Shown: positions 26,079 to 64,000, counted from the stretch's first letter. The stretch: DNA of 64,000 nt from a bacterium BMS3Bbin08 (GCA_002897775.1 BDTR01000042.1:61280-125279), one strand, 5' to 3'. The notes: generated from the sequence alone by a model not told the origin. Translations and numbers: made by a program.

Positions 26079-26109
26079 CCATCTATCGAGGTTGAACCTC
26101 GATAGATGG
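26079..26109. repeat. REP palindrome copy 1 (CATCTATCGAGGTTGAACCTCGATAGATG)
   Basis: Near-perfect 29-31 bp palindrome with TTGAA centre, immediately 3' of the RAYT gene. Confidence 0.85.
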
Positions 26110-26112
26110 GCC

Positions 26113-26853: not shown

Positions 26854-26880
26854 CTATCGAGGTTCAACCTCGATAGATGG
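26851..26880. repeat. REP palindrome copy 3 (inverted centre TTCAA) overlapping RAYT start codon
   Basis: CATCTATCGAGGTTCAACCTCGATAGATGG; opposite orientation to copies 1-2. Confidence 0.85.
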
Positions 26881-26955
26881 ACCCGCCTTCCTCAATTATA
26901 TGTTCGGTTTTTTTGAGCGGAAATGTTAAAATTATGAACCAATCAAAGGAAAGGC

Positions 26956-28256: not shown

Positions 28257-30461
28257 CTATTTAGACCACATTTGCGTACGGGTATAATCAACAGCTACTT
28301 CCGATTTCCCCTCAACGATAAAACCCATTCTTTTGCCAAGAGGGGATAAATCCGAAACTTCACCGAGATAATTATCGTTTAAGTAAAAGCGCATCGTAGT
28401 ACCCTGTTTTTCCAACTTAAGAGTATTGAAGGAATTTTTCTGGAAAACCATGTCCTTTATCTTTCCGCTGGCCAGTTCCTGTGGAACGCCTTTGTAATAC
28501 CTCTTGATAAAATATAACCCATTTGAGCTGATCTGAAACGTATAATTATTGCCGGCATCTTTAGCGCCCATCACATATCCATAAGAGTGGTTGCCAGAAG
28601 CCCTCACTGTTTTCATAGCAACCTCTACTATGAACTTCCTGTCAAGAGGAAAATCATAAGCATTCAGCGTGACGTATTTGCCTCTCTCGCTTTTGTTCTC
28701 GATATAATACTTCCCGTTTTCTATCCGTGCAGAAGCCATGGTTGTATTGAATGTCTCCCAAGTCTTATCCTCATTATTATCGAATTGAGTCTTATATAGC
28801 ATGAACATTTCGCTCGGAGACTTGGAAGTTGGTTTTTCAGGTTTAAGGCTAGCGAGAAGTTCTTTAGCAGCCTCTTCCTCGGCAAGCTTTGCAGCCTTTT
28901 TCCTGGCAGCCTCTTCCTCGGCAAGCTTTGCAGCCTTTTCTTTGGCAGCCTCTTCCTCAGCAAGCTTTGCAGCCTTTTCTTTAGCAGCCTCTTCCTCGGC
29001 AAGCTTTGCAGCCTTTTCTTTGGCAGCCTCTTCCTCGGCAAGCTTTGCAGCCTTTTCTTTGGCAGCCTCTTCCTCGGCAAGCTTTGCAGCCTTTTCTTTG
29101 GCAGCCTCTTCTATCTCAACAGCCTCAGGTAAAAGTGTCCTGTCATATTCAGCCTTCCTGCCCGGATCAGACAGGTGTTCATGCGCCTCTGTAATATATG
29201 AGAATATTGCGGTCAGTTTCCCCTTCAGGTCGTCCTGGTCGTCAGACGGCAGGGCAAAGTGCCTGTCCGGGTGGAACTCCTTTGATTTGCTGTAGTATGC
29301 CTTGCTGATCTCTTCAGCAGACGCGTTTTTTTCAGTGCCGAGTATACCGTAATATCCTATGGACCACAGCTTTTTAAGTATGTCTTCCACTTTATTCAGG
29401 AACTCAGGCGTGATCTCTTCAGCCGGTTCTTTTATGATCTCTTCAACGTCTTCGATCTTGAGCTCCGCAGGCGCTCTTTCTTCTTTCCTGACAGCGATCA
29501 TCCCTATGCTGAGAAGGGCGCAGATGGTTTTGAGGGTATCGGGTTCAGGCAAAAGTGAAAGCGACAACACGGTTTTTAATGAACGTTTGCCATCTATACA
29601 GGAAAGGATCGCCTTGTCAGATCCATCAAGTTTGACATCCTGAAAGATGTTCATCGGGCTGGGCGAAAGATCAAGCACTGCCGTCAGAGGCGGGATTACC
29701 TTTTTTATGTGAAGGATATTATTAACGTTTTTGATACCGTTGCATATAATATTTGCGGCACTGATCCTGAGAGTTATCAAATCGTCTGAAGAAAGAGAGC
29801 CTTCATGGAACCTGAACTTGCCGGTTTCCATGGCAAAAAGACTGAGTATGATCTCCTCTATCTGATGCTGTACCGCGACAAAGACCTCTTTTGGTTTTAG
29901 GCATCCGAGCTCTACAAGGACCTTGCCCAGCTTGCTCCCGCTTTCTTCAGATAAACCGCGCGCCTTGTCAAATTCTTCCTGGCTGATCCTTTTTTGCCTT
30001 ACAAGAAGTTCTCCAAACCCATCCTCTTTGTAATTGGACGAGGCAAATATCATGTCCCCGTTCCTTATGAAGACCTCCTTGATTACCGAGCCGCTCGCAA
30101 CCCTGAGAACCCCTGTTTTTGTGCTCCTCTGCAGGCCGATCAGCACATCTGCCAGTGCAAAGCTCTTTAAAGAGCCCTGAAGGCTGTCCAGTCTTTTGAA
30201 CCCCACCCTGAGTTCATCGTCTGTTTTGTTTACCCATGCGACCTCGCCCCTAAACTGTATCTCAGGGTCAAAGACCTTTACATCCGCCTGTGTGCCGACA
30301 GTAAGCTTCGGGGCATTCTCAAAAACCGCGCCAAGCCCGTCCGAATAGTCAAGTACTCTGCCTCTATAGGTCTCTGAGCCTACCTTTACCTCACACTCAG
30401 ACCGGCTTTCATATCTTTTAAAATGTCTTCTGTCCTCATCGCTCATAATTAAATTATACAA
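28257..30461 (-). CDS. Multidomain PilZ - DUF4388 - J-domain (DnaJ) protein with EEAAKEKAAKLAE x7 coiled-coil repeats and C-terminal beta-domain
   Basis: N-terminal PilZ (RRHFKR...DYSDGLG), DUF4388 (SLKSFALADVLIGLQRSTKTGVLRV), J-domain with HPD (YYGILG...EFHPDRH), seven 13-aa repeats, C-terminal jellyroll-like domain. Confidence 0.7.
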   Translation of the reverse strand: MYNLIMSDEDRRHFKRYESRSECEVKVGSETYRGRVLDYSDGLGAVFENAPKLTVGTQADVKVFDPEIQFRGEVAWVNKTDDELRVGFKRLDSLQGSLKSFALADVLIGLQRSTKTGVLRVASGSVIKEVFIRNGDMIFASSNYKEDGFGELLVRQKRISQEEFDKARGLSEESGSKLGKVLVELGCLKPKEVFVAVQHQIEEIILSLFAMETGKFRFHEGSLSSDDLITLRISAANIICNGIKNVNNILHIKKVIPPLTAVLDLSPSPMNIFQDVKLDGSDKAILSCIDGKRSLKTVLSLSLLPEPDTLKTICALLSIGMIAVRKEERAPAELKIEDVEEIIKEPAEEITPEFLNKVEDILKKLWSIGYYGILGTEKNASAEEISKAYYSKSKEFHPDRHFALPSDDQDDLKGKLTAIFSYITEAHEHLSDPGRKAEYDRTLLPEAVEIEEAAKEKAAKLAEEEAAKEKAAKLAEEEAAKEKAAKLAEEEAAKEKAAKLAEEEAAKEKAAKLAEEEAARKKAAKLAEEEAAKELLASLKPEKPTSKSPSEMFMLYKTQFDNNEDKTWETFNTTMASARIENGKYYIENKSERGKYVTLNAYDFPLDRKFIVEVAMKTVRASGNHSYGYVMGAKDAGNNYTFQISSNGLYFIKRYYKGVPQELASGKIKDMVFQKNSFNTLKLEKQGTTMRFYLNDNYLGEVSDLSPLGKRMGFIVEGKSEVAVDYTRTQMWSK
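28858..29112. repeat. Seven near-perfect 39-bp tandem repeats (coding EEAAKEKAAKLAE)
   Basis: GCAGCCTCTTCCTCGGCAAGCTTTGCAGCCTTTTCTTTG repeated head-to-tail on the plus strand. Confidence 0.85.
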
Positions 30462-43781: not shown

Positions 43782-44504
43782 GTGGTACCCCGGTTATTAG
43801 CAGTTAGTTTTCCGCTATGGCGAAACTCGCTCAAGCGGTTTATCTATCAACTAACAACTATCAACTGGCTAATGTCTCCTCCCAAAATTCTACGAACACT
43901 GTTCTCACACGATGAAAAGGTAAGAAAAAATTACCCTGTTACCTGCGGTATCGATGAGGCAGGCAGGGGGCCGCTTGCAGGCCCGGTAGTAGCTGCTGCC
44001 GTAATACTTCCGGCACGACTTGTCATTGAAGACCTCAGAGATTCAAAGCAGATACCTGAAAACAGGCGTATAAGGCTCTTCTGGGACATTGTAATCAGTT
44101 GTCCGGATATCGGGATTGGAATTGTTGATGAAAATACGATAGACAGGACAAATATACTTAAAGCCACAAAACTCGCAATGCAGATGGCTGTTAAGGACCT
44201 GAGCCGCAAGCCGGACATGCTGTTGATAGACGCGGTCAGCCTGCCTGAGCTCAATATTAGCCAGAAACCAATAATCAAAGGCGAATCAGTGAGCGCCTCG
44301 ATCGCCGCCGCGTCTATTGTAGCGAAAACAGTGAGGGACCATATCATGACCGCTTACCACGAAGAGTATCCTGTTTATAATTTTAAAGGACATAAAGGCT
44401 ATCCCACAAAAGAGCATGTTGAACTTATACGCCTGCATGGGCCCTGCCCGATCCACAGGAAGAGTTTCAGAAAGGTAATGGGCATGGAACTACCGTTTAA
44501 ATAA
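43782..44504 (+). CDS. rnhB: Ribonuclease HII
   Basis: CGIDEAGRGPLAGPVVAAAVIL catalytic N-motif; true start probably downstream of ORF-track start. Confidence 0.8.
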   Translation: MVPRLLAVSFPLWRNSLKRFIYQLTTINWLMSPPKILRTLFSHDEKVRKNYPVTCGIDEAGRGPLAGPVVAAAVILPARLVIEDLRDSKQIPENRRIRLFWDIVISCPDIGIGIVDENTIDRTNILKATKLAMQMAVKDLSRKPDMLLIDAVSLPELNISQKPIIKGESVSASIAAASIVAKTVRDHIMTAYHEEYPVYNFKGHKGYPTKEHVELIRLHGPCPIHRKSFRKVMGMELPFK

Positions 44505-44523
44505 AAAAGTAGAGAGTAGCAAT

Positions 44524-44557
44524 CCCCGTTAGATTCTGATGAATCTGGACAACGGGG
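44524..44557 (+). terminator. Family T hairpin after rnhB
   Basis: CCCCGTTAGATTCTGATGAATCTGGACAACGGGG. Confidence 0.5.
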
Positions 44558-44596
44558 TAAATACATAGCTCATAGTAAAATTCCAAAGAAGAAATA

Positions 44597-44712
44597 ACAT
44601 TAAATCTATAAATGCACAGCGAGCGGTTAGTAAGCGAATATAATAATAATTATTCCTTACATTGTGCTTACCCTCCAGTTTTTGTGGAGGGTGATCACTA
44701 ATCTAAAATTTG
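44597..44712. repeat. Family Z repeat, left arm of a 4.8-kb inverted pair
   Basis: Reverse complement matches 49474-49640 (which carries two extra hairpin insertions), about 80% identity; contains CCCTCCAGTTTTTGTGGAGGG hairpin. Confidence 0.75.
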
Positions 44713-44729
44713 CAATTTAAAATGTATCT

Positions 44730-45110
44730 GTGTTCTATAAAATAATTGCTGACATTGTTGTTCTGCTTCATTTCCTGTGGATAATATTCCTTGTCTTCGG
44801 TGCGCTTATCGGCAGGCGGCACAAAGTGGTAAAAGTCCTGCATATCCTGGGAATGGGATTTGCAATTATCATTCAGATCTTTGGATGGTACTGCCCCCTG
44901 ACATATCTTGAGGTCTGGCTCAGGCGGACGTATGATCCATTACACGGATATGCCGGCTCATTCATAATAAATTACGTCCAGAAGCTTGTATATATTGAGC
45001 TACCGGGAAATACGATCCTCTTAGCTACAATTTTCCTTGTACTGGGGTCTGCCTTTATTTATATGTACCCCCCCCCCGTTAGATCCGGTGAGAAAACACC
45101 CCGCATCTAA
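44730..45110 (+). CDS. DUF2784-like small membrane protein
   Basis: 126 aa, 4 TM, HFLWIIFLVFGAL...CPLTYLE pattern. Confidence 0.4.
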   Translation: MFYKIIADIVVLLHFLWIIFLVFGALIGRRHKVVKVLHILGMGFAIIIQIFGWYCPLTYLEVWLRRTYDPLHGYAGSFIINYVQKLVYIELPGNTILLATIFLVLGSAFIYMYPPPVRSGEKTPRI

Positions 45111-45200
45111 GAATACAGATCACGGGGCTGGCGCCGTTAGATCCGGTGAGAAAACACCCCGCATCTAAGAATACAGATCACGGGGCGGACGCCGTAAGAT
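45065..45200. repeat. Tandem direct repeat, about 62 bp x 2.2, each unit with CCCCG...CGGGG hairpin
   Basis: CGCCGTTAGATCCGGTGAGAAAACACCCCGCATCTAAGAATACAGATCACGGGGC repeated; overlaps 3' end of the DUF2784 ORF. Confidence 0.7.
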
Positions 45201-49473: not shown

Positions 49474-49640
49474 ATTTTAGATTAGTGCCCGCCCGCCAGT
49501 CTGTTTGGCGGGGTCACCCTCCACAAAAACTGGAGGGCAAGCCCTCCACAAGAACCGGCGGGTAAACACAATGTAAGAATTTACTTATTATCATATTCGC
49601 TCACTAAACGTTCACTGTGCATTCATAGATTGAAGAATTT
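49474..49640. repeat. Family Z repeat, right (inverted) arm with nested CGCCCGCCAG...GGCGGGG hairpin
   Basis: See left arm. Confidence 0.75.
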
Positions 49641-49680
49641 AGATTTAATCTTTTAGATTATTTCTCTCTTGGAACTGTAC

Positions 49681-49792
49681 TATGAACTATGTATTTACCC
49701 CAGCCTGTCCCGTGGTCCAAGTCCAATTGGACTTTACGGGATAGTTTTAGGTTCGCCCTTTCAAGAAGAACCTTACGGGGAGCTATGATTTG
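49681..49792 (+). repeat. Family X full copy 2
   Basis: See copy 1; abuts the family Y inverted repeat. Confidence 0.85.
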
Positions 49793-49912
49793 CATTTATG
49801 GAATTGTTTGCGATTAACGAATAACTATTAACCCCGTAAAGTCCACAATTGTCGTGACTAGACTACGGGGCAGGCGTATAACGGTCATTTTGTCTATGAG
49901 CCATGAGCTATC
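49784..49912. repeat. Family Y repeat, left arm of a 9.3-kb inverted pair
   Basis: About 125 bp; reverse complement at 59085-59208 is about 97% identical; core CCCCGTAAAGTCCACAATTGTCGTGACTAGACTACGGGG related to family X. Confidence 0.85.
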
Positions 49913-50011
49913 AACTACTGAGGACACTGAATACACAGAGACTGCAAATTTTAGATTTTAGAATTCAGGTTTTAATCTCTCTACTTTCTACTCTCTACTT
50001 TTTAAGGAGCT

Positions 50012-52000
50012 ATGAATCGTTTCAAACTAACTTCTGACTTCAGGCCCGAAGGAGATCAGCCCCAGGCTATAGAAGAGCTTACAGAGGGCGTTCAAAAGGG
50101 CCTGAGACATCAGGTACTGCTTGGCGTCACAGGCTCGGGCAAGACATTTACCATTGCCAATACAGTCGCAAATGCGAACAAGCCGACCCTGGTCATAGCC
50201 CATAATAAGACCCTTGCCGCGCAGCTCTATGGAGAGTTCAGGGCATTTTTCCCTGAGAACGCGGTGGAATACTTTGTCAGCTATTACGACTACTACCAGC
50301 CCGAGGCTTACCTGCCCTCATCAGACACATACATTGAAAAAGATTCGTCGATCAACGAAGACATTGACAGGATGAGGCATTCGGCAACCCGCGCTGTTCT
50401 TGAAAGAAGCGATACCATAGTGGTCGCGTCTGTTTCATGCATATACGGCATCGGCTCGCCTGAAGATTATCTCGGCATGCACCTTTTTATTGAAGAGGGT
50501 ATGCATATTGAAAGAGACGCGTTCCTGAGAAGGCTTGTGGACATGCTCTACGAACGCAGGGAGGACTTCACAAGGGGCGTGTTCAGGGTAAGAGGGGATA
50601 TAGTCGAGATATTCCCTTCTTTTTCAGTTGATAACGCGATCAGAGTCGAGTTCTTCGGTGACGATATTGACGCGATCTACGAATTTGATTCTTTAACAGG
50701 CAGGGTCATCAAACAATTTTCAAAGTTCGCCCTGTTCCCCAACAGTCACTGGATCACTCCAAGATCAAGGCTTGACGCGGCCATGACCTCGATCAATGAC
50801 GAACTCGAGCAAAGGATCGATTTTTTCATTAGAGAGAATAAACAGCTTGAGGCTCAAAGGATCGAGCAAAAAACCAGGTTTGACCTGGAAATGTTAAAGG
50901 AATTCGGCTACTGTCACGGGATTGAGAATTATTCAAGACATCTGAGCGGCAGGGCTTCGGGTGAACCATCGTTCTGCCTGATAGATTATTTTCCGGAGGA
51001 CTTTCTAATAATAATAGACGAGTCCCACGCAACCATACCACAGATCGGCGGTATGTATCAGGGAGACCGCTCAAGAAAACAGACCCTTATTGACTTCGGC
51101 TTCAGGCTTCCGTCAGCGCTTGATAACAGGCCCCTTAAGTTCAGGGAATTTGAGCAACGCATAAACAATGCGATATACATATCCGCAACCCCTTCCGAGT
51201 ATGAGATCAGGAAGTCAAACCACAGGGTGATCGAGCAGATAGTCAGGCCTACCGGCCTTACAGACCCTTCTGTGGATGTAAGACCTGTAAGGGGCCAGCT
51301 CGATGACCTGCTGGGAGAGATCAGGGAAAGGGCTGATAAAGGTGAAAGAGTACTGGTAACCACCCTGACCAAGAAAATGGCAGAAGACATTACCGAATAC
51401 TATAAAGAACTTGGGCTTAAGGCGAGGTATCTGCATTCCGATATTGATACTATAGAGAGGGTTGAAATACTTAGAGACCTCAGACTCGGAGAGTTTGATG
51501 TACTCATCGGTATTAACCTGTTAAGAGAAGGACTTGATCTTCCTGAAGTCTCACTCGTCGCTGTCCTTGACGCGGACAAGGAAGGTTTCCTGCGCTCTGC
51601 CCGCTCCCTTATTCAGACCTCAGGCCGTGCCGCGAGGAATGTAAACGGCAAAGTCATTTTTTATGCTGACACAATCACCGGATCCATGCAGACAGCTATT
51701 GATGAATCAAACAGGCGGCAGAAGATCCAGCTGGAATATAACAAAAAGAATAAAATAACTCCTAAATCAATCATCAAAGATATAACTAACGTCCTCAGTT
51801 CAATATACGAGGCTGACTACTGGACAGTCCCGGCGGTTGCAGACGAGAAGGTTGAATACACGGACGAAACAGGCATTAAACAGCTTGAAGATGAGATGAA
51901 ACAGGCGGCTGATAAACTCGAATTCGAAAAGGCAGCGGAACTGAGAGACAGGATAAAGGCAATCAGGAACAGGCAGATTGAGGTAGGGATAAAGACATAG
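50012..52000 (+). CDS. uvrB: Excinuclease ABC subunit B
   Basis: Walker [11 protein letters not shown], beta-hairpin, helicase motifs, C-terminal UVR domain. Confidence 0.95.
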
Positions 52001-52126
52001 TTGAAAGGATAACCCTTCACAATTTTGCTTTTGCACCAGCTCCTGTCTACCGACAGGAAGACGCAGGGGCAAGCAAAATGAACCGTGAGGGCTGAAGGAG
52101 TTGAAAGTTGCCTTGATTCGACCTTA

Positions 52127-52852
52127 TTATGGATTAAAAGTCTTAATATGCGCATGGCAACTTGATTTTGTGCACGTTCTTCCCCATTGATGGCTGTGCC
52201 CGCCACCACCGCCTCCACCGCCGCCTCCACCGCCGCCACCACCGCCGCCTCCGCCTCCGCCGCCGGAGGTGTTGCGATGCCTCGCGGTTTGTGTATGGCA
52301 GGTGTCACAGACACTGTCGTAGTACCCGTTGCCATCCTGGTCACGATCGCAGAAAGAATGCAGGGTTGGATCCCCAACATCCGTGCCGCGGTTTTCAAAA
52401 ACCACATGTCGGATCCCGCTGTTAGGGGTGTTAATTTTTGTATAGCCGGAGGCGTCCAGGTCTGAATCCCCCACCATCTTGATATTAGTGCCGGTTCCAT
52501 TACCATTACAGTTGCCCGGACACCAGTTGTCAAAGGCCAAAACTTCCCCTTCATGCGGGTTGTGGCATTCTCTGCACGTTATCTGCCACACACCATAATC
52601 AGGAGAACTGTCATTCGGGTCGTTCTCATGGACTTCCACCTGGGTAGCGTTTCCTCCGGGCCCGTGACAGCTCATGCACAGGGCTTCTATAGATGCGGGT
52701 GATCCCGTTAACAGAAAATAAGACGGGCTGCCGCCATGAATGTCATGGCAAAAATCACATTCATGAACCCGGGCATTACCAATACCCGGCAGGAAAAAAA
52801 CAATGCCCGATAAAACAAATGTAAAAACTAATGACCGGAGAAGATACCTCAT
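52127..52852 (-). CDS. Secreted tetraheme c-type cytochrome with 23-residue poly-glycine tract
   Basis: Signal peptide; four CxxCH (CDFCH, CMSCH, CRECH, CDTCH); G23 linker encoded by mixed GGN codons; 4-bp overlap with upstream NHL gene. Confidence 0.65.
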   Translation of the reverse strand: MRYLLRSLVFTFVLSGIVFFLPGIGNARVHECDFCHDIHGGSPSYFLLTGSPASIEALCMSCHGPGGNATQVEVHENDPNDSSPDYGVWQITCRECHNPHEGEVLAFDNWCPGNCNGNGTGTNIKMVGDSDLDASGYTKINTPNSGIRHVVFENRGTDVGDPTLHSFCDRDQDGNGYYDSVCDTCHTQTARHRNTSGGGGGGGGGGGGGGGGGGGGGGHSHQWGRTCTKSSCHAHIKTFNP

Positions 52853-53826
52853 GGTATCACACCTCCCCCTGGATACGCCTCTATCCGTCTGGGACGGTTA
52901 TTCGTGACAAAAACATCTTCTGTCGCCGGGTCAATTATAATATCCAGGGGCAAAAACAGCTGTCCGGGGTTAGAACCAAAGCTGCCAATTGTCTTTACGC
53001 CGGCAAATGTCCCGCGGTTGAACACAAGGATCTTACCCAAAACGGATTCCACCATAAAGATGTAGTTATCACTTACTGCAATACCCTGCGGACTTGCGAA
53101 TTCATAGCCACTGGCCACATCTTCTGCTGAAAACCCGCCGAGGTAGTTGCCCGCATAATTGTAAATCTTTAATCGCGCGGGGATTTCAGCAGAGTCAGAC
53201 GGGTTACCGAAATCCGTTACAAATATCTCCTGGGCATTTTCATCTACTGCTATGCCTCTCGGGCTAACCAGAAGTTCAGGATCTGCCCCTGTCCCGCCTA
53301 TTGAGTACAGAAATTGTCCATCTGTTCTGAAGACCTTTATAAGCCCGTCATTGCTATCCACAACAAATACCATATTCTGTGTTTTATCAATTGCGATATC
53401 ATTCGGCTTTTTTACATTCCCTTTGGTGCCGCCCAGATCGTATAGCCACCAGCCCTGCAAGGTGTAAGCTTCAACTGTTCCGGTTGATTCATTGCCGACA
53501 AAAACAATGTCAAAAAAAAGACTGTCCAAAAAAGCGACTGCCAGCGGTCTCCCCGCGACGGGAAAAGAACTGATCATCTTAAGATCTGAGCTGTCAATTA
53601 TGTATATTCTCTTCCGGAAATAATCAGAAACAAGGAGGTTGCCGTCTGAGGTAAAATCAATCCTGACAGGAGAGCGTATGGATATTGGTTTATCACCAAT
53701 ACCGCCTTCCCCGGTCATGCTGTCGTCGCTTCGGCATGATTGAAGGCCTGCGGCCAGGAATAAAACAAGAGGAACAAACAAAACCAGAAGCCAGGCATGA
53801 AAGTTCCCTTTAAATGTCCGCTTCAT
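52849..53826 (-). CDS. Secreted NHL-repeat beta-propeller protein
   Basis: Signal peptide; repeated (S/P)xGIAVD...IFV(V/T)D NHL blades x about 6. Confidence 0.7.
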   Translation of the reverse strand: MKRTFKGNFHAWLLVLFVPLVLFLAAGLQSCRSDDSMTGEGGIGDKPISIRSPVRIDFTSDGNLLVSDYFRKRIYIIDSSDLKMISSFPVAGRPLAVAFLDSLFFDIVFVGNESTGTVEAYTLQGWWLYDLGGTKGNVKKPNDIAIDKTQNMVFVVDSNDGLIKVFRTDGQFLYSIGGTGADPELLVSPRGIAVDENAQEIFVTDFGNPSDSAEIPARLKIYNYAGNYLGGFSAEDVASGYEFASPQGIAVSDNYIFMVESVLGKILVFNRGTFAGVKTIGSFGSNPGQLFLPLDIIIDPATEDVFVTNNRPRRIEAYPGGGVIP

Positions 53827-53967
53827 ATCAGCCCCTTTTATTTAGTTTAACCTTATAAAACAATATGAGTCAACAAATCTTAATTCTTATCAGGGTCTTA
53901 ATGATAGGAAGGCGGTATTATGCGGGGTCTAACTATACGTTTTTTCAGCTTTTATTTATACTTAATC

Positions 53968-54519
53968 TTATTCCTCAAGCAGTTTTCTCAGTTCTTTGGT
54001 CTCTTCCTCAGTCAGCTGCATTGAAGACTCTTTACCTTTCATCATCGCCATGGCCTTGTCAAACTGTGTCCTGAAAATCCCGGCGGTATCTGCAAAGCCC
54101 TGCGCAACAGCCTCGGAGTATGTCAGGGCGGTCCTGATGCTCTTTGTTGCTTCTTCTTCATTGCCTCTATGGGCATAGGCGGTTCCCCTTCCGAAAAAGG
54201 CCGCGCCGTGGTCTGGTTTCAGCTTTATAACTCTGTCAAAATCGGCTATCGCCTTTTCATATTCCTCTTTTGCCAGAAGTGCTATGCCGCGATAGTAATA
54301 GGCCCTGTAGTTCTGGTCGTTCAGACCTGTTACAGCGCCAAAATCCTTAACAGCATTATCATATTCGTTCATTTTAAAATATGCCGCGCCGCGGCTCAGG
54401 CACGCGATCTCCGTGTGCTCTCCCGCATCTATGATCTTTGTAAAAACCTCCACACTCTCTTTGTATTTGCCCTCCAGGAAAAAACGCTGAGCATCGCCTA
54501 ATAATTCCTTTATGTCCAT
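53968..54519 (-). CDS. TPR-repeat protein
   Basis: Four or five TPR units (W-LG-Y-A-F-P patterns: AYYYRGIALLAKEEYEKAIADFDRVIKLKPDH...). Confidence 0.65.
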   Translation of the reverse strand: MDIKELLGDAQRFFLEGKYKESVEVFTKIIDAGEHTEIACLSRGAAYFKMNEYDNAVKDFGAVTGLNDQNYRAYYYRGIALLAKEEYEKAIADFDRVIKLKPDHGAAFFGRGTAYAHRGNEEEATKSIRTALTYSEAVAQGFADTAGIFRTQFDKAMAMMKGKESSMQLTEEETKELRKLLEE

Positions 54520-54697
54520 TTACAAACCTCCTTAAAGACCAGCCATGCCGAAAACAGATTTATTCTTTTCTATGAAAACACAGCGTTTCCCATTAAAGCA
54601 AGCTGATATGTAAGGCCAATGATCACATATACTGGTTTTGATGTTATAATCTGGAAAAAGAATTGCGTATTAAAGCAAAAGCGCAAAAACACTGAAA

Positions 54698-54772
54698 TGA
54701 TAAAAGCGGTTATGTTTGACTTTGGAGGGGTCCTGGCAGAAGAATGTCTCAGCCTGATCGAACAGTCATAAT
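54698..54772 (+). pseudogene. Remnant of a HAD-family hydrolase gene (motif I only)
   Basis: Encodes MIKAVMFDFGGVLAEEC then stops after 24 codons; HAD motif I DxDGxL-like context without remainder of gene. Confidence 0.25.
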
Positions 54773-54828
54773 AAGACGCGGGCATTCAGTCAGGTGATCC
54801 AGCAGGTTCTTAAACTCTTCTCAGGCTT

Positions 54829-55137
54829 TTATTCCTTTGGTACATACGGTCCGGGTGTGAATGCAGGGTCAATGAAATAGGCCTCTTCAAAATACTTTAT
54901 TGCCTCATCGTGCCTTCCAAGCTTATAGAGCGCGTAGCCCAGGCGGTAATACGCGGGTGCTGCAGGGTGCTCCTCGACATACTCTTCAAAATATTTTATT
55001 GCCTCTTCGAATTTTCCGGTGTTGTAGTACTTCAGCCCTTCTTCATATGAATCATCGATCTGGGCAAGAGCCGCAGCTGACAGCATGAACAGCATTAAGA
55101 ACATTGAAATTATAAAAACCCATGTTTTCATAAACAC
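54829..55137 (-). CDS. Small secreted TPR-like protein
   Basis: Signal peptide, two TPR-like units (YYNTGKFEEAIKYFEEY.., YYRLGYALYKLGRHDEAIKYFEEA). Confidence 0.5.
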   Translation of the reverse strand: MFMKTWVFIISMFLMLFMLSAAALAQIDDSYEEGLKYYNTGKFEEAIKYFEEYVEEHPAAPAYYRLGYALYKLGRHDEAIKYFEEAYFIDPAFTPGPYVPKE

Positions 55138-55284
55138 CTCCTGAAATGATGTTTTAATATAATTTCTTAAATATTACCACATAATCATAATATATCATAT
55201 AACAAAATAACCCCGGCCAATATAACGAATTTTCGGCCCTTTGACCGCCGGAACTTTAAACTGGAACTGGGTTATAATCTTTTT

Positions 55285-57123
55285 ATGGATATCAGGGGAA
55301 AATTACAGCAGGCGCCCTCTTCTCCCGGTGTTTACGTCATGAAAGCCGCCGGGGACCGTGTTATTTACGTCGGCAAGGCAAAAAACCTGAAAACCAGGCT
55401 GAGGTCATATTTCCAGAAGTCCGCTTCTCTTGACGCCCGGAAAAAAAGAATGGTCAGGGAGATACGGGATTTTGACTGTATCGTAACCAGGAACGAGCTT
55501 GAGGCGCTGGTGCTCGAGGCAAACTTCATAAAAAGGTCAAAGCCCAGATACAACATAATCCTCAGGGACGACAAAAACTATCCTTATCTCAAGCTGACAA
55601 TAAACGAAAAATGGCCGAGGCTTGAAGTAGTCAGGAGGATCGCCAAAGACAGGGCGGTTTATTTTGGCCCATATGTACCGTCAGGCAGTATGTGGGAGAT
55701 ACTGAGGTTCATAAGGCGCAATTTCCCCCTCAGGACATGCAAATTTAATCTCGATAAGCCCTTCAGGCCGTGCGTCCAGTACCAGATAGGAAGATGTCTC
55801 GCGCCGTGCGGAAAAGATTTTCGAAAAAAGGCGGATGAAGACAGGTACAGGGAAGTGGCCGACGAGGCAAAACTTTTTCTGCTCGGACACAAAAAAGAAC
55901 TCCTTTCAGGCCTTGAGGACAAAATGAGAACATATTCGGATAATCTGAAGTTCGAGCGGGCCGCAGCCATAAGGGACAGGCTCCGGGCAATTGAGCGGGC
56001 GTGGGAGTCACAGCGCGTAATATCACCTGAACTTGGAGATATGGATGTCATAGGCCTTCACATGGAAGACAATGAAGCCTCCGTGTTCCTGCTCTTCATA
56101 AGAAACAACATGGTTATCGGACAGAAAGATTTTTTGCTGAAAAAGACGGCGGGCTTAAGTAACAGCGAGCTTATTGAGGGCTTTATAGAGCAGTTTTATT
56201 CAAAGGAGATGATCCTTCCTCCAAAGATACTGCTTCCCTTTAAAGCAAAGCTTGATACACAGAGACGCTGGCTAAACGAAAAACGGAAAGATAAGGTCGT
56301 AATTGCAGACACAAAAAGCAGGGCAGAGAAAGAGATCATGAAAATGGCTCTGGACAATGCCTGTCACTCCTTTATAAGGCATAGGGAGTTAAAGGCCTCT
56401 CCGGCTGTAAAACAGGCCCTTCTGTCGCTTAAAGACCTTTTGAAGCTGAAAACCGTTCCGCGCAGGATCGAGGCTGTCGATGTTTCAAATCTGTCCGGTT
56501 CAGAAGCGGTCGGAGCTGTTGTTGTATGGGAGGACGGGGTCTTTATCAGGGATGACTACAGGCTCTATAAAATAAAAACAGTAACAGGGATCGATGATTT
56601 TGCTATGATAGAAGAAGTATTGATAAGATATTTCAAAAAACTTTCTGATGGAGAAAGAAAATTGCCTGACCTGATACTTATAGACGGCGGCAAAGGACAG
56701 CTCGGGTCCGCTTTAAACGCGATGAAACAGTTCAAACTGCCTGTGATGATCGCTGCCATTGCAAAAGCAAAGACAGGCAGGGCCGCAATGGCAGCCGCGC
56801 AGAAAGACAGGATATTTTTACCCCGTGAGAAAGAAAAACGATTGGAACCTTTTCTGGCCTCAACTCACCTGCTCCAGAAAATAAGGGATGAAGTGCACAG
56901 ATCTGCCATAACGTTCCACAAAAAACTACGCGCCAGGAGGGTGCTTGAATCCCCGCTGGAAAAGATCAGGGGCATAGGCAAGAAAAGGAGGCTCCTGCTA
57001 TTAAGGCACTTTGGGAGTTTAAGCGCCATTAAAAAGGCGTCGGTCGATGAAATAGCGTCTTTAAAAGGCATGAACAAAAAAATCGCTGAAATTTTAAAGT
57101 CGTCCCTGCAGGGGATGAAATAA
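55285..57123 (+). CDS. uvrC: Excinuclease ABC subunit C
   Basis: N-terminal GIY-YIG (GVYVMKAAGDRVIYVGKAKNLKTRLRSY), UVR domain, RNase H-like and C-terminal HhH domains. Confidence 0.95.
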   Translation: MDIRGKLQQAPSSPGVYVMKAAGDRVIYVGKAKNLKTRLRSYFQKSASLDARKKRMVREIRDFDCIVTRNELEALVLEANFIKRSKPRYNIILRDDKNYPYLKLTINEKWPRLEVVRRIAKDRAVYFGPYVPSGSMWEILRFIRRNFPLRTCKFNLDKPFRPCVQYQIGRCLAPCGKDFRKKADEDRYREVADEAKLFLLGHKKELLSGLEDKMRTYSDNLKFERAAAIRDRLRAIERAWESQRVISPELGDMDVIGLHMEDNEASVFLLFIRNNMVIGQKDFLLKKTAGLSNSELIEGFIEQFYSKEMILPPKILLPFKAKLDTQRRWLNEKRKDKVVIADTKSRAEKEIMKMALDNACHSFIRHRELKASPAVKQALLSLKDLLKLKTVPRRIEAVDVSNLSGSEAVGAVVVWEDGVFIRDDYRLYKIKTVTGIDDFAMIEEVLIRYFKKLSDGERKLPDLILIDGGKGQLGSALNAMKQFKLPVMIAAIAKAKTGRAAMAAAQKDRIFLPREKEKRLEPFLASTHLLQKIRDEVHRSAITFHKKLRARRVLESPLEKIRGIGKKRRLLLLRHFGSLSAIKKASVDEIASLKGMNKKIAEILKSSLQGMK

Positions 57124-57131
57124 AAAATGAG

Positions 57132-57166
57132 CCCCGTTGTCCAGAAAGTATAACTTTCTAACGGGG
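57132..57166 (+). terminator. Family T hairpin after uvrC
   Basis: CCCCGTTGTCCAGAAAGTATAACTTTCTAACGGGG. Confidence 0.5.
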
Positions 57167-57182
57167 GAAACAGAGGGGTTAA

Positions 57183-58124
57183 ATGAGCATGCATATTTAT
57201 GTTTCAGGTTCAATGGCGTATGACAGGATAATGGATTTTCCCGGCAAATTCTCCGACCACATCCTGCCTGACAAGATACACATTCTGAACGTGTCTTTTA
57301 CTGTTAATGGAATGGTTGAAAAATTCGGAGGCACCGCGGGAAACATTGCCTATTCATTAAGCCTGCTAAAAGAAAATTCCGTGATACTTGCCACCATAGG
57401 AAAGGACCACGCGCGTTATTTTGACTGGCTCAAAGGCAACGGGATCTCGGCAGAGGGCATAAAAGTAATACATGAAGAGTTCACTGCCGGCGCTTATATA
57501 ACAACTGACAAGGCTGATAACCAGATAACAGGTTTTAACCCGGGTTCCATGAAGCACCAATCCGGGTACAAATTCAATAACGTAAAGCCTGAGGATTCAA
57601 TAGCGGTTATCGCAGCCGGAAACCTCCAGGACATGATCGAATACGCAGCGACATATAAGAGCAGGGGGATCAATTATATATGCGACCCGGGCCAGTCCCT
57701 GACGTCGTGGGAAGGCAAAGACCTTGCAGACTGGATCAAGGGTTCGATAATGCTTATCTCAAATGACTATGAACTTGATATGATCATGCGGAAAACAGGG
57801 TTGGACAAAAAAAACCTTCTAAAAAAGACAAAAACCATTATCACGACCCTGGGAGAAAAAGGTTCTGTTATAAGTACATCTGAAGGCGACACCAGCATAC
57901 CTGCGGCAAAGATCATAAATATCCTTGACCCCACAGGCGCGGGCGACGCGTACAGGGCAGGCCTTGTAAAAGGAATTGTGATGGGCAAGGATATTGAAAC
58001 ATCGGCAAAGATAGGGGCTGTCGCGGCGACATACGCGATAGAGCACTACGGGACCCAGGAGCACTACTACACATACGAAAACTTCGTAAAGAGATACAAA
58101 ACCAATTTCGGGGATCTGGAATAG
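57183..58124 (+). CDS. PfkB-family carbohydrate/nucleoside kinase
   Basis: GG dipeptide (KFGGTAGN), C-terminal DPTGAGDAYRAG anion hole. Confidence 0.8.
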   Translation: MSMHIYVSGSMAYDRIMDFPGKFSDHILPDKIHILNVSFTVNGMVEKFGGTAGNIAYSLSLLKENSVILATIGKDHARYFDWLKGNGISAEGIKVIHEEFTAGAYITTDKADNQITGFNPGSMKHQSGYKFNNVKPEDSIAVIAAGNLQDMIEYAATYKSRGINYICDPGQSLTSWEGKDLADWIKGSIMLISNDYELDMIMRKTGLDKKNLLKKTKTIITTLGEKGSVISTSEGDTSIPAAKIINILDPTGAGDAYRAGLVKGIVMGKDIETSAKIGAVAATYAIEHYGTQEHYYTYENFVKRYKTNFGDLE

Positions 58125-58291
58125 TAAGTGTACAAAATAGTTCATCCCGACGTTTCGGGACAAACCGTTTAAAAAATCTAAAAAAAGGCGGGATGGCGAG
58201 GAAACACAATAACAGCTCGATTCATGATATATGTTCAATTATAACCAGTTAACGATTCACTATTCACCATTCACAATTCACGTTTTTACAA

Positions 58292-59083
58292 ATGAACATT
58301 GAAACTCTCAGAAATATCGGAAAACAGCTGAGACAGGAGATCCCTCCCCTTGCAGTAAAACCTCACGGCACCGCTCCGATCGGCAAGGGTGCGGGCGGTG
58401 ACATGACCTTTGCGGTTGATAAAAAAGCTGAAGAGATCATTTTTAAGGAGATAGAAAAACTCAATGAGCCGGTCACCCTGGTGTCAGAAGAACACGGCAT
58501 TAAGGATATAAAAGGCGGCGGTCCAAATATCCTCATAGACCCCATAGACGGCAGTAAGAACGCCGTATCAGGCATACCTTTTTTCTCAACATCCATCGCG
58601 ATCGTGAATGGGGACACGCTGGGTCATATATCCATGGGTTATGTGATAAACCTTATTAACGGCGATGAGTTCTGGGCTGAAAAAGGTAAAGGAAGCTTTT
58701 TAAACGGCGTCCCTGTAAGAACACAGGAGGATGAGGTTCTTAATGTTATTGCGTACGAGGCTCAGACGCCAAAAGTGCACATACCTGAAATTCTCCCTCT
58801 GCTTTCACTTTTCAGAAGAACAAGGTGTCTTGGTTCAACAGCACTTGACCTGGCGCTCCTGGCAGCCGGGGCTGTAAGCGTGTTCGTTGCCCCTGCCCCT
58901 TCAAGGAGCTTTGACCATGCCGCTGGATATTTGCTGGTAAGAGAGGCGGGCGGGATCATTACTGACCTCAATGGAGAAGATATTGACAGTGTTCCCGTTG
59001 GGATAAAAAGGACGGTCGCGCTTCTTGCCTCAGGGAATAAAAAACTGCATTTTAAGGCCCTGGCGGCCTTAAAACGCTCATAG
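58292..59083 (+). CDS. Inositol monophosphatase / fructose-1,6-bisphosphatase family protein
   Basis: Metal-binding motifs EE..., IDPIDGSKN, WDHAAG-like (FDHAAGYLLVREAGG). Confidence 0.8.
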   Translation: MNIETLRNIGKQLRQEIPPLAVKPHGTAPIGKGAGGDMTFAVDKKAEEIIFKEIEKLNEPVTLVSEEHGIKDIKGGGPNILIDPIDGSKNAVSGIPFFSTSIAIVNGDTLGHISMGYVINLINGDEFWAEKGKGSFLNGVPVRTQEDEVLNVIAYEAQTPKVHIPEILPLLSLFRRTRCLGSTALDLALLAAGAVSVFVAPAPSRSFDHAAGYLLVREAGGIITDLNGEDIDSVPVGIKRTVALLASGNKKLHFKALAALKRS

Positions 59084-59084
59084 C

Positions 59085-59208
59085 TGATAGCTCATAGACA
59101 AAATGACCGTTATACGCCTGCCCCGTAGTCTAGTCACGACAATTGTGGACTTTACGGGGTTAATAGTTGTTCGTTAATCGTAAACAATTCCATAAATGCA
59201 AATCATAG
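59085..59208. repeat. Family Y repeat, right (inverted) arm
   Basis: Reverse complement of 49784-49912. Confidence 0.85.
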
Positions 59209-59254
59209 TTCATATTCTCTCTACTCTCTACTTGCTACATGCTACTTTATTAAG

Positions 59255-60652: not shown

Positions 60653-63600
60653 TTAAAGCCCCTCTTCTTTGAGCTGATACCACTTAATTTCCCACCATTT
60701 GAGAAGTTCATCTGTCATTATCCTTATTGATCCCACGTCCAGTGTTGTCACTTTACTTAGACTTTGGGCGGCTTTGATTATATCTTTAATATTCTTCTCA
60801 ATGTCTTCACTTGATATAACATTTCTATTCAAGACTTTTTCGAGGCTGTTTACCGCATCATAAATCCTGACCAGGTCATCACCTTCAGCGTTTAAAGCAT
60901 TAAGTTGGGCTACAATCTCTTCCGCCATGCCCGGCAAATCTTCCTCTATACTTAATACGATCTCATCAGTGCTGTATTCAGAATATGATCCATTCTCTAA
61001 ATTCGACAATACTGTTTCGAGTGTATATGAGCCTTCAATATCCGGAAGCTGCAGTAAGTAACTGAAAATAACCGATGTATCAGCATCCAGATACTCCTGC
61101 CAGGTTATTGTGTCGCCTTCCAGAATGCCACCCTCTGAAATCCCAAGTATCTCCACTTCAGAAGGTACTGTCTCCTCCACTTTAATATCAAAAGCACCAT
61201 CCACAGCATCTACCTTTATTTGAACCTCAAGAATACTGCCGGGATATTGAGTGTATTCTATTGGAGCCGCATAATTTATAGAGTTTTCGAATATGTCTGC
61301 CATCAGGGACTCTTCCTCTATATCTATCGGATTGAAAACGAAAAGAACAGTTCTACCGGCCCCAAAATCATTGGCTGTTATAGCAGGCAAATCTGACCCT
61401 TCAAAATACCCAATAACAGACGCAGTTGTCGTGTCTATCTTCACAGAATTACCTGCAAGATTTATCAGACCGCTGCCGGCTATTTCTGTATCAAGCGTTA
61501 CTATCACGTTGTCTTCATTGTTCACGCCGTAGGAATGAACTCCGAGAGCTTCCTTAAGATATGAGAGTTCCGATGGGTGAGTTTTTATAAAAACTATTCC
61601 TTCCCCTCGATATACTGCCTCTCTGAGCTCTTTCTGGAGTTCAGGATGAATTGATATATGATGGCCATGGGATTTATAGCTATGTAAATCAACAATAATA
61701 TAAGTGTTATAGATGCCGGATCTGAGTTCAAGGTAGAAATCATCCTCCTCTGTTACAACCTTATACAGGGCACCCATATCTTCAAGGGCGCTCTCTATAA
61801 ATTCTTTTGTCTGAACTATAGTTGGATCATCACCCTTATGCTTACCACACTGGTGATTTTCATCTCCAATCCATACAAGGGTATTTAATGCCGCGAATAC
61901 GGATTTAGACAGTTCCAGTTCTCCTATAGACAATGTAAGAGTGTATCTGTTTTGTTCGCTTTCATTTCCAACGTTATCAGCCGCTGTAAAAATAAAGATA
62001 TTTTCGCCGGGGATCAGATTGACATTGCTGAAAATAAACTCGCCCGTCACTGAATCGGCCTGTGTTGTAAAGATATTGATAAAGCCCATTTCAACTGTTG
62101 AGCCGGGTTCTGCCTGGCCGATTATATCAACTGTTTCTGTATCAACTGTTGAACCTTCAGGAGGTGATGTAATAACCGGCGGAAGCGGGGGAGTCATATC
62201 AATTGTAAAACTTATGGTTACGCCTGAAGCATTGCCGGCTCTGTCTGTGGCAGTTACGTCAAGTATGTGCTCACCCTCTGCTGTTATCACTGTTCCGCTT
62301 GCAAACTCCTCATTATTAAGCTTAATTATCAGTATATCCGGATTTTCGTCTATAACAGTGACTACAGGCGTTACATCAACATTATGGTACTGCCCGTCCT
62401 CAACACCGCTTATTTCTATAACAGGCGGTGTAAGGTCAACTATGACTGTAGTTGATACAGGCTCACATGTATTTCCAGTCTTATCTGTTGCCCTGAAGCT
62501 TATTGTATGTATGCCTTCATCAGTGCCTTCAGGAGTCCATGATGTTGAATATTTCCCCAAAGATGGATCTGAGGCCCGCAGCAGTTTCCAGGAGCCGTCA
62601 TCCATTTTGTATTCTACCTTCTCAATGCCTGACGCATTGTCCGCAGCCAGAACTGCAATATTTACCATTGAATTATGATAACTGCCTGAGACAGGTGAAA
62701 GTATTGATACCACCGGCGGCGTACCGTCTATTACTGTAAAAGATGAGCTTGATACGCTTCCGCTATCCTCTCCATATATATACTTAAGGCTTACTGTGTA
62801 GGTCTTAAGTCCATAACCTTCTGTCGGAATTATAAATTCTCCGTTCTGAACACCGCCGATCAAAAGGTCTGCTATCTCCTCATATGTTTTCATTACTGCC
62901 TGTGTAGCAGGATCTGTTACCAGAACTCTCAATACAAGACCGCTTGCATCAGCATTGCCATTGTTCTGTATGTCGTATTCGACGTTAACATTGTTTCCAA
63001 GGTCCACTACTGCCGGTGCGGCCTTGATACTTCCGGTGATTATTATGGACTCATTAACGCTGAACGCCGATGATTCGCTCGTAACGAGCTGTCCGTCAAC
63101 AAATATGTCCACGACTGCCGTATAATCTCCCGGCGTATTAAGCCCGGTATTCCATACAGAAGCAAGAGCGCTTGTTACACCGGGCAGAAGGTTTGTCAGT
63201 ATCCTGTTATCCGTGAATTTTTCAATGCCGTCAGAGTCAGTGATACTTACCGCAGCTGTCAGTTCAGGAATAATGTAATTAATTCCGTTATTTGTAACAT
63301 TAAAGCTAACTGTTACATCCTCGTTGGCATCATATCGAGTCTTGTCAGTCGCCGCAGTGAGGCCTATATCAACATCAGCCAGGATCTCAAAAGGTACAAT
63401 ATCCTCAGCCATTACATCAGGCGGATTCTTAAGGAGCGCATGCACGCTGTACGGGCCCGCGTACGTTGAACGCGTGTTCCACACAAAACTGTAATTTTCC
63501 AGTGCTCCATAAGCAAGATGGGTACTAATAATATCAATCGAAGTTACTTTATATCCATTCACATCTTCTACAAATATTTCTAAAACAACATCCCTTTCCA

Positions 63601-64000
63601 TACCGCTGTTGATAATTTCTATATTGATATTCACATCATCGTTGCTTGTGTATACATTAGAGTCAAGAGTGGTTGTCATTGACAGCCCCTCTTCTTCTAC
63701 TACTACAAAATCCCTCGTCGCGTAGTTGTTGGCTTCAGACTGCTCAACTATCTTATCCTCAGGATCAATAACAACAATTACCGTATTTATACCAACCTTG
63801 CCATCCGTATCCCAGCTAAATCCTACGGTTTCGCTTGAGGCGGCCCCCATATACGGAATCGTTTCCGACTTCACAAGTTCCAGATTGCCTGAGAAATCCC
63901 AGACATAAATATCAACATCCACATTCTCAGCCTCGCTTCCGCCTGTATTACGAACAACTACATTTATTGCTGCCTGTTCTCCTGTCAACGGATAAACAGG
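60653..64000 (-). CDS. Large extracellular Ig-like/CARDB multi-domain surface protein (5' end outside window)
   Basis: Over 1111 aa open to the window edge; repeated about 100-aa beta-sandwich modules rich in T/V/D/N (CARDB-like DVDIYVWDFSGN). Confidence 0.5.
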   Translation of the reverse strand, partial: PVYPLTGEQAAINVVVRNTGGSEAENVDVDIYVWDFSGNLELVKSETIPYMGAASSETVGFSWDTDGKVGINTVIVVIDPEDKIVEQSEANNYATRDFVVVEEEGLSMTTTLDSNVYTSNDDVNINIEIINSGMERDVVLEIFVEDVNGYKVTSIDIISTHLAYGALENYSFVWNTRSTYAGPYSVHALLKNPPDVMAEDIVPFEILADVDIGLTAATDKTRYDANEDVTVSFNVTNNGINYIIPELTAAVSITDSDGIEKFTDNRILTNLLPGVTSALASVWNTGLNTPGDYTAVVDIFVDGQLVTSESSAFSVNESIIITGSIKAAPAVVDLGNNVNVEYDIQNNGNADASGLVLRVLVTDPATQAVMKTYEEIADLLIGGVQNGEFIIPTEGYGLKTYTVSLKYIYGEDSGSVSSSSFTVIDGTPPVVSILSPVSGSYHNSMVNIAVLAADNASGIEKVEYKMDDGSWKLLRASDPSLGKYSTSWTPEGTDEGIHTISFRATDKTGNTCEPVSTTVIVDLTPPVIEISGVEDGQYHNVDVTPVVTVIDENPDILIIKLNNEEFASGTVITAEGEHILDVTATDRAGNASGVTISFTIDMTPPLPPVITSPPEGSTVDTETVDIIGQAEPGSTVEMGFINIFTTQADSVTGEFIFSNVNLIPGENIFIFTAADNVGNESEQNRYTLTLSIGELELSKSVFAALNTLVWIGDENHQCGKHKGDDPTIVQTKEFIESALEDMGALYKVVTEEDDFYLELRSGIYNTYIIVDLHSYKSHGHHISIHPELQKELREAVYRGEGIVFIKTHPSELSYLKEALGVHSYGVNNEDNVIVTLDTEIAGSGLINLAGNSVKIDTTTASVIGYFEGSDLPAITANDFGAGRTVLFVFNPIDIEEESLMADIFENSINYAAPIEYTQYPGSILEVQIKVDAVDGAFDIKVEETVPSEVEILGISEGGILEGDTITWQEYLDADTSVIFSYLLQLPDIEGSYTLETVLSNLENGSYSEYSTDEIVLSIEEDLPGMAEEIVAQLNALNAEGDDLVRIYDAVNSLEKVLNRNVISSEDIEKNIKDIIKAAQSLSKVTTLDVGSIRIMTDELLKWWEIKWYQLKEEGL

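Follow-up and report, generated by a model that had tools for sequence, protein, structure and literature searches.

Does a block of ordinary genes lying between two long and nearly identical inverted repeats move, invert, or stay in place? This question is raised by a locus in a 64,000-nt stretch of DNA from the bacterium BMS3Bbin08 (GCA_002897775.1, BDTR01000042.1:61280-125279; called the window below), in which two repeat arms enclose eight genes from uvrB to the IMPase gene. A preliminary description of the locus preferred an invertible chromosomal segment and considered a mobile island unlikely. The results presented here lead to another answer, to which a probability of about 0.8 is assigned: the arms are an incidental inverted pair of extragenic palindromic repeats, similar to repetitive extragenic palindromes (REP) and bacterial interspersed mosaic elements (BIME), and the block is static, neither mobile nor inverted. 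The sequence family is new and of a known type: its palindromes are repetitive and extragenic, and the intergenic regions that contain them are mosaics.

The arms and the genes between them

As listed in Table 1, each arm is 132 nt long. The repeat search found the arms to be 96% complementary and 9168 nt apart, the longest inverted repeat of the whole window. By blastn, 127 of the 132 bases are reverse-complementary (96.2% identity, E 1e-58); the five mismatches are at left-arm positions 49782, 49810, 49822, 49902, and 49905, and the longest perfect block between the arms, 79 nt, is central. The coordinates given earlier (49784-49912 and 59085-59208, about 97%) agree with these to within a few bases. 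The repeated sequence, termed the Y unit, has in its middle a core consisting of an imperfect hairpin of about 43 nt, CCCGTAAAGTCCA...ACGGGGCAGGC, with degenerate 7-bp tandem repeats of the CGATTAA and CTATGAG types on either side. In the left arm the order is a AGCTATGA heptamer, an AT-rich spacer with CGATTAA-type heptamers, the clamp hairpin core, its tail, and CTATGAG-type heptamers. The predicted fold of the Y core has an energy of -8.5 kcal/mol (z -1.8).

The right arm overlaps the end of the IMPase gene: its first base is the last one of the final sense codon, and the arm provides the TAG stop (59081-59083). No open reading frame (ORF) lies within either arm. The Y unit has no inverted termini, both of its ends being direct AGCTATG-type heptamers; a miniature inverted-repeat transposable element was rejected as a candidate on the absence of terminal inverted repeats, and the heptamer context makes any target-site duplication uninterpretable.

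The gene content reported earlier, including its housekeeping genes, which serve DNA repair and sugar metabolism, was confirmed by Pfam. No transposase or recombinase domain was found by Pfam among the eight enclosed genes, and there is no recombinase among the neighboring genes either. At the outer ends of the arms no target-site duplication or direct repeat was found, and the outer flanks, CCTTACGGG and ATATTCTCT, differ. The GC content of the block, 0.44-0.52, is in keeping with that of its flanks.

Orientation of the block in near-identical strains

The UvrB of the window is encoded residue for residue in GCA_002897755.1 (BDTC01000063), ERZ1742235, ERZ1742236, ERZ1742237, GCA_011040835.1, and a Logan assembly, and the contigs with this identical UvrB have 99.85-99.96% DNA identity to the window. 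Both arms are spanned by five contigs: BDTC01000063, ERZ1742237 NODE_206, ERZ1742236 NODE_130, ERZ1742235 NODE_766, and ERZ909564 k127_8611. The gene for a 121-aa protein, which lies outside the right arm, was found in 10 places; eight of them cross the arm, and all eight run collinearly into IMPase. The GGDEF gene outside the left arm was found in nine places, six of which cross the arm region, and each of the six runs into uvrB with equal spacing. An inverted junction, that is, a join of GGDEF to IMPase or of the 121-aa gene to uvrB, was present in 0 of 14 junction-crossing contigs. The preference for an invertible segment is therefore not supported, as all crossing contigs are in the reference orientation, which is also the ancestral one. 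The read sets behind several of these assemblies overlap, and what an assembly gives is the majority path.

The arms and the entire region upstream of uvrB are base-identical in all strains, including the five arm-specific mismatches. Short Logan contigs end in repeated sequence, either in the arms or in a repeated module upstream of the X unit described below. L078 spans exactly 49872-59119, and its two ends are reverse-complement-equivalent positions of the 79-nt perfect block. Such ends at repeats are the expected behavior of a de Bruijn assembler and are uninformative on orientation.

Ancestry of the block

The source lineage belongs to uncultured marine Nitrospirota (Thermodesulfovibrionia). 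The UvrB homologues are annotated as Nitrospirae/Thermodesulfovibrionia, and according to the literature, metagenome-assembled genomes (MAGs) of the BMS3Abin type (the name is that of another MAG, which encodes a homologue) come from inactive vent chimneys and from sulfide deposits of the deep sea. Three related loci, L079, L082, and L114, encode a UvrB with 87%, 85%, and 82% identity to that of the window. All of them have the order S6-SSB-S18-DUF507-DUF507-GGDEF-(Macro)-uvrB-...-TPR(-)-uvrC-pfkB-IMPase-~120aa(-)-DUF3187(-), in the same gene orientation as the window, where the right-hand neighbors are 121aa(-) and DUF3187(-). Both arms are absent from the three relatives, and the corresponding intergenic regions hold only heptamer tracts of their own. 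The same gene order without the arms indicates that the block is ancestral and that the arms arrived later. The preliminary description had proposed a synteny comparison; that three relatives keep the gene order without the repeats is the comparative half of what it held to speak against an invertible segment. Its doubt about a mobile island proved justified, since the block stands in the same place and orientation in three armless relatives, with no transposase and no target-site duplication.

Some differences between these loci were also observed. A slot in the middle of the block (52127-53826) is variable: the cytochrome and NHL genes of the window are absent from L079, L082, and L114, which carry one longer TPR gene there, with a DUF5684 match in L079 and L082. 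Both the window (43872-44504) and L114 have the RNase HII gene on the plus strand, whereas L079 (3547-4173) and L082 (3663-4289) have it on the minus strand, a one-gene inversion in otherwise conserved synteny; the DUF2784 gene beside it is missing in L079 and L082. This difference in rnhB orientation was considered as a precedent for repeat-mediated inversion and rejected, no flanking inverted repeat having been found around 43.4-45.4 kb in the window.

A dispersed family of clamp hairpins

In the window, 5 matches to the pattern CCCGTAAAGTCCA-N(10-40)-ACGGGRCAGGC were counted, where chance predicts 0.00. Its clamp, CCCGT-N(15-45)-ACGGG, occurs 9 times against 0.71 expected, and none of 100 shuffles reaches 9. 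All nine clamp hairpins are intergenic, lying between the ORFs and called genes of the window, and seven of them start at most about 400 nt past a stop codon, for example 10 nt for uvrC and 21 nt for rnhB.

A second unit, X, abuts the left arm, as had been noted before, and matches 17014-17116 at 98%. It overlaps the left arm by 9 nt (GAGCTATGA) and contains the X core, CCCGTAAAGTCCAATTGGACTTGGACCACGGGACAGGC (49703-49740, tail on the minus strand), together with a second small hairpin with a CCCC/GGGG outer stem. The fold of the X core has an energy of -11.3 kcal/mol (z -3.8), and none of 200 shuffles is as stable. The X and Y cores have the 5' part CCCGTAAAGTCCA and the 3' part ACGGGRCAGGC in common and differ in their middles; both are predicted to fold into a CCCGT/ACGGG clamp with a variable stem-loop and a 4-5-nt bulge on the 3' side (GGACC or AGAC). 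At the left locus the two cores stand in inverted orientation at a distance of about 92 nt. When this stretch is folded as a single strand, one core is predicted to pair with the other; the energy is -37 kcal/mol (z -5.3), a stability attained by 0 of 200 shuffles. This predicted arrangement is the geometry of a REPIN, a REP doublet forming a hairpin. The right arm and most other core copies are singlets.

A scan of metagenome contigs for the core yielded 18 stretches, all in the three sister records VAPA/VAPB/VAPC; two of these records also encode the 87%-identical UvrB. In these copies the 38-nt core is kept and most flanks are unrelated; three pairs represent one locus in two records. Most of the copies sit in heptamer tracts whose units, GTTCAAGC or TGAAACA, are of other types. 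Nested or tandem units with one common 3' clamp are found in L084, L090, and L092, and the GGGCAGGC tail also occurs on other hairpin types in the metagenome stretches. At one orthologous site, where both sides align, a bare 38-nt core is present in L082 and absent from its sister L079, which indicates that the small core hairpin was gained or lost by itself. Apparent direct repeats beside the core hairpin are uninformative as target-site duplications because the flanks are heptamer arrays. A 17-base core was searched for in 185,579 species-representative genomes (596 Gb), a collection that contains no source genome and no carrier of the family; the 72 single matches, in unrelated taxa, are at about the chance level that we estimate for a 17-mer in 596 Gb. 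The excess of clamp hairpins in the window and the metagenome stretches bear out the earlier assignment of the arms to a dispersed hairpin-element family.

Whole hairpin units are also tandemly duplicated in two places: a 58-nt clamp hairpin occurs twice at 45076-45191, after DUF2784, and a 42-nt CCCCTTAGGAAGC...GGGG hairpin occurs twice at 15637-15720. These duplications indicate that hairpin units can multiply locally as well.

Mosaic structure of the intergenic regions

Tandem tracts of 7-bp units fill most intergenic regions of the window. A TCTCTAC tract similar to that at 49948-50001 lies directly outside the right arm (59213-59247), in direct orientation relative to it. The region of 550 nt upstream of uvrB has overlapping pieces in common with loci at 17.0 kb, 44.5 kb (inverted), and 59.1 kb (inverted): overlapping modules of 49540-49911 recur at 44520-44700 (inverted), 17014-17116 (direct), and 59080-59211 (inverted). 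Such a combination of palindromic units, which alternate in orientation, with conserved short motifs in variable arrangement is an organization of the BIME type; the resemblance is one of organization only, by analogy, without sequence homology. The intergenic region 44505-44730 is wholly replaced between strains whose flanks are 99.9% identical, and the mosaic copy at 44.5 kb is absent from L074 and L077.

Further heptamer arrays are seen, for example, at 10152-10171, 13081-13113, 16962-16986, 17426-17460, 20568-20637, and 58255-58281, and the arrays often begin at or inside a stop codon. At the same locus after IMPase, the heptamer is CATAGCT in the window, TAGATTG in L079 and L082, and GTTACTC in L114. 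A second inverted pair of about 180 nt (44520-44700 and 49540-49745) brackets 5 kb, from DUF2784 through S6-SSB-S18 to GGDEF. This mosaic combines two hairpins, one a clamp hairpin and the other of the sequence CCCTCCAC, with a GGGGTAAATACATAG tail and a conserved motif of 31 nt, AATGCACAGYGARCGNTTAGTRAGCGAATAT; the latter motif is also present upstream of uvrB in L114, in the opposite orientation.

Table 1. Repeat units, hairpins, and enclosed genes in the window
Feature	Position	Strand	Basis or remark
Left arm, Y unit copy	49780-49911	+	Repeat search, blastn
Right arm, Y unit reversed	59080-59211	-	Repeat search, sequence reading
Y core hairpin, left: CCCGTAAAGTCCACAATTGTCGTGACTAGACTACGGGGCAGGC	49833-49875	+
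Y core hairpin, right	59116-59158	-	Same sequence as left Y core
X unit	49687-49788	-	Repeat search, blastn; 98% identical to 17014-17116 over 103 nt
Second full X unit	17014-17116	-	Convergent intergenic region
Bare X-like core hairpin, CCCGTAAAGTCCAAATGGACTTGGACCACGGGGCAGGC	24739-24776	-	Weaker copy
REPIN-like doublet, X core and Y core	49703-49875		Predicted single-strand fold
Clamp hairpin, CCCGTTGTCCAGAAAGTATAACTTTCTAACGGG	57133-57165	+	Within enclosed block, 10 nt past uvrC stop
Third-subtype clamp hairpin	44525-44556	+	In mosaic of about 180 nt, 44520-44700 (inverted copy of 49540-49745)
Nine clamp-hairpin sites	17036, 24745, 38823, 44525, 45075, 49709, 49833, 57133, 59122
Heptamer tracts (ATTTTAG and TCTCTAC types)	49948-50001	+	Left arm to uvrB start
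Enclosed 9.2-kb block	49912-59079		uvrB, cytochrome, NHL, TPR, TPR, uvrC, pfkB, IMPase
uvrB	50012-52000	+	Pfam
CXXCH cytochrome	52127-52852	-	Pfam
NHL propeller	52849-53826	-	Pfam
TPR protein	53968-54519	-	Pfam
TPR protein	54829-55137	-	Pfam
uvrC	55285-57123	+	Pfam
pfkB	57183-58124	+	Pfam
IMPase	58292-59083	+	Pfam

A transposase-like gene with palindromes of its own

An ORF on the minus strand at 26113-26853 encodes an HUH motif (HFHLL) and YIHLNP, and matches NCBIfam REP_Tyr_transpos with E 1e-9, below the curated cutoff. This gene resembles those of REP-associated tyrosine transposases (RAYT), and with its own palindromes it shows that the lineage carries REP/RAYT machinery. The search for RAYT homologues met a family of more than 6,000 members and reached no copy flanked by X or Y.

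Several features of the gene itself were noted. It is flanked (region 26066-26882) by the palindrome CATCTATCGAGGTTGAACCTCGATAGATG, which is unlike X and Y, and a third copy of this palindrome lies in frame within the coding sequence (26311-26356), directly past the YIHLNP motif. In L101 (4400-5230) a homologue with 59% identity is arranged alike: both of its flanks and the corresponding internal site carry a palindrome, AACTATGGGAGTCGAACTCCCATAGTT, that differs from the one in the window. The peptide at the internal palindrome (consensus IYGGSTSID) is conserved across 16 family members.

Origin of the arms and rival explanations

According to the explanation preferred here, the Y unit would be a small non-coding repeat, composed of a hairpin of about 43 nt with a CCCGT/ACGGG clamp, a bulged xGAC, and a conserved GGGRCAGGC tail, set within 7-bp tandem repeats. 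The unit would be a member of a lineage-specific superfamily of REP/REPIN/BIME-type palindromes that fills the intergenic regions of a marine Thermodesulfovibrionia genome. Two Y copies probably landed in separate intergenic regions, one upstream of uvrB and the other just past IMPase, around a block that already existed; their inverted orientation would be incidental, a consequence of the presence of many such repeats. RecA could invert the block occasionally, at a frequency presumably too low for assemblies. The hairpins may have spread by either or both of two routes. In one, single-stranded hairpins would be mobilized in trans by an HUH/Y1 enzyme, RAYT-like or IS200-like; mobilization of REP and REPIN by RAYTs has been proposed (PMC3116915, PMC3337134). 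In the other, ectopic recombination or patch conversion may have taken place between heptamer-rich intergenic mosaics, as is suggested by the size of the Y unit (132 nt, three times its hairpin), the overlapping pieces with three partners, and the replacement at 44505-44730.

Several observations weigh against this explanation. No cognate transposase for the X and Y hairpins was found, the one RAYT-like gene of the window having a different palindrome, and no Y1 gene stands beside the X core at 18 related loci searched by tblastn and for the HUH...YxxxNP motif, these searches having yielded just that RAYT-like gene and its homologue in L101; membership in the REP/RAYT system is therefore unproven. 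Y cores are seen only twice, and both are the arms themselves. The identity of the arms over 132 nt reaches well past the 43-nt core, which indicates that the copied unit was larger than the hairpin; with such an oversized unit and its direct heptamer ends, ectopic recombination or patch conversion fits at least as well as transposition. Finally, majority-path assemblies are compatible with a minority subpopulation in which the block is inverted.

A recurrently invertible segment, in which a RecA- or recombinase-dependent crossover between the arms flips the uvrB-IMPase block and possibly alters expression of excision-repair genes, would fit the geometry, the inverted repeats having 132 bp, 96% identity, and a perfect core of 79 bp. 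This is more than the minimal pairing for RecA recombination, about 25-30 bp; as a substrate, a pair of this length and identity is usable, though poor. The earlier suggestion of a substrate for homologous recombination thus stands in the formal sense, whereas inversion itself is unobserved in the assemblies. None of the junction-crossing contigs is inverted, the orientation equals that of the three armless relatives, the block and its neighbors lack a recombinase gene, and every strain has the same five arm-specific mismatches. Moreover, about 100 nt of upstream sequence would move together with uvrB, and inversion would give uvrB and the 121-aa gene a common direction; on these grounds no on/off logic is evident. 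Such a segment is accordingly considered improbable. A site-specific switch of the Hin/Gin/Fim type or a shufflon was rejected, as no dedicated recombinase is present among the enclosed or neighboring genes and only one orientation is seen in the 14 contigs. Even less credit can be given to the footprint of an intramolecular replicative transposition, by which one Y copy would have produced an inverted second copy and inverted the DNA between them. This process classically leaves two inverted copies around an inverted segment, but the segment here is not inverted relative to three outgroups, so that two successive inversions would be needed, and no target duplication is present. That the arms are the ends of a composite transposon or island which moves the 9.2-kb block is already effectively refuted: inverted-repeat geometry is its sole support, while the arms, at 132 nt, contain no ORF, the block has no transposase, its GC content matches the flanks, target-site duplication is lacking at the outer flanks, and the same neighbors occur in armless L079, L082, and L114.

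Selection for function is a more serious, though doubtful, candidate, and it overlaps with the preferred explanation, since the inverted geometry would be incidental here too. The arms would then be functional RNA or DNA elements, such as mRNA-stabilizing or terminator-like 3' hairpins or protein-binding sites, the latter having been proposed for REP and BIME. The closeness of most clamp hairpins to stop codons, the position of the right arm in a convergent 3' region, and the invariance of the arms across strains while a neighboring intergenic region is wholly replaced are consistent with such a role. Against it, Rfam searches of both arm regions (E <= 1) gave nothing better than E 0.28, and no match to them was found at gathering thresholds in the whole window; the Y hairpin has no T-run and was missed by the terminator scan; and the predicted fold of the left arm by itself is no more stable than that of shuffled sequences (z -0.76). 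Scans for promoters and terminators around the two arms pointed to no function of the Y hairpin. It is unlikely, although less so than recurrent inversion, that the hairpins (conserved GCCTGYCCCGT foot, bulged xGAC, variable stem-loop) and their rapidly evolving, species-specific heptamer tracts constitute an undescribed class of self-propagating intergenic element in marine Thermodesulfovibrionia, moved by an HUH enzyme or by templated patch recombination instead of a flanking RAYT, with low-frequency invertibility of the block as a by-product.

Comparison with known repeat systems

Within the window and the metagenome stretches, the X and Y hairpins resemble the REP and REPIN sequences of Pseudomonas and E. 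coli in being dispersed, extragenic, imperfect palindromes of 20-45 nt, often located just 3' of genes (PMC3116915, PMC3337134, PMC3733652). Those systems comprise singlets and inverted doublets; here most copies are singlets, and the left locus is a doublet with a predicted fold into one long hairpin. The 5' foot contains a GT(A/G)G motif, and the genome has a RAYT-like Y1 gene. One end of a REP or REPIN bears a conserved tag, GTAG or CGTC, which is unpaired (PMC3733652). Here, GTAG (CCCGTAGTC) is found in Y and about 7 metagenome copies, whereas X has GTGG, and the motif is base-paired within the clamp stem instead of forming an unpaired tag. The present hairpins further differ in that no RAYT flanked by X or Y hairpins was found in the loci searched, that a GGGRCAGGC 3' tail is common to otherwise different hairpins, and that nested or tandem units with one clamp (L084, L090, L092) are set in heptamer tandem tracts.

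In E. coli, BIMEs are intergenic mosaics of palindromic units, whose orientation alternates, and other short conserved motifs. Their mosaic organization offers the closest resemblance to the present case, in which the uvrB upstream region shares pieces with three loci in an analogous manner; the sequence families and the phylum differ, and heptamer tandem repeats are added here. Heterocystous cyanobacteria possess short tandemly repeated repetitive (STRR) sequences, which are intergenic 7-bp tandem arrays with several unit types per genome. The short 7-bp arrays of the window are also intergenic and of several types; a literature search gave incidental mentions of STRR only. Unlike STRR, the tracts belong to another phylum and other unit sequences, host hairpins, and change their unit between sister species (AGCTATG/TCTCTAC in the window, TAGATTG/CAATTGT in L079 and L082, GTTACTC in L114). 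Inversions between copies of insertion sequences, rRNA operons, or REP also involve inverted homologous repeats around ordinary genes as RecA substrates. However, known repeat-mediated inversions involve repeats of hundreds of bp to several kb with both orientations documented, compared to 132 bp and one orientation here.

As a candidate invertible or mobile segment, the locus matters little, because all signs are of an ancestral block that is static and around which two repeats were inserted later. Its modest value lies in showing how dense a REP/BIME-like repeat system can be in an uncultured lineage of Nitrospirota, one that probably dominates sulfide deposits of the deep sea that are inactive. 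Repeats of this kind break short-read assemblies, as seen at the ends of Logan contigs exactly within the arms, drive intergenic turnover between 99.9%-identical strains, and could seed rearrangements. When these MAGs are binned, scaffolded, or compared, contig breaks and apparent 'inversions' are to be expected at these elements.

Other features of the window

A group I intron is present at 22761-23027 (Rfam 79.5 bits), directly followed by an apparent tRNA 3' half ending in CCA (about 23047-23077); ARAGORN called no tRNA in the window. The ORF at 22486-22809 overlaps the 5' end of the intron and ends in a CxxC...H HNH-like motif, and a small ORF just downstream (23170-23442) has a weak GIY-YIG match. 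Additionally, two large ORFs on the minus strand vary between near-identical strains. That at 28257-30461 contains a 39-nt tandem repeat (28860-29111) and encodes 734 aa here compared to 1036 aa in L113, and that at 60653-63988 no longer aligns with L073 and L075 past 60694.

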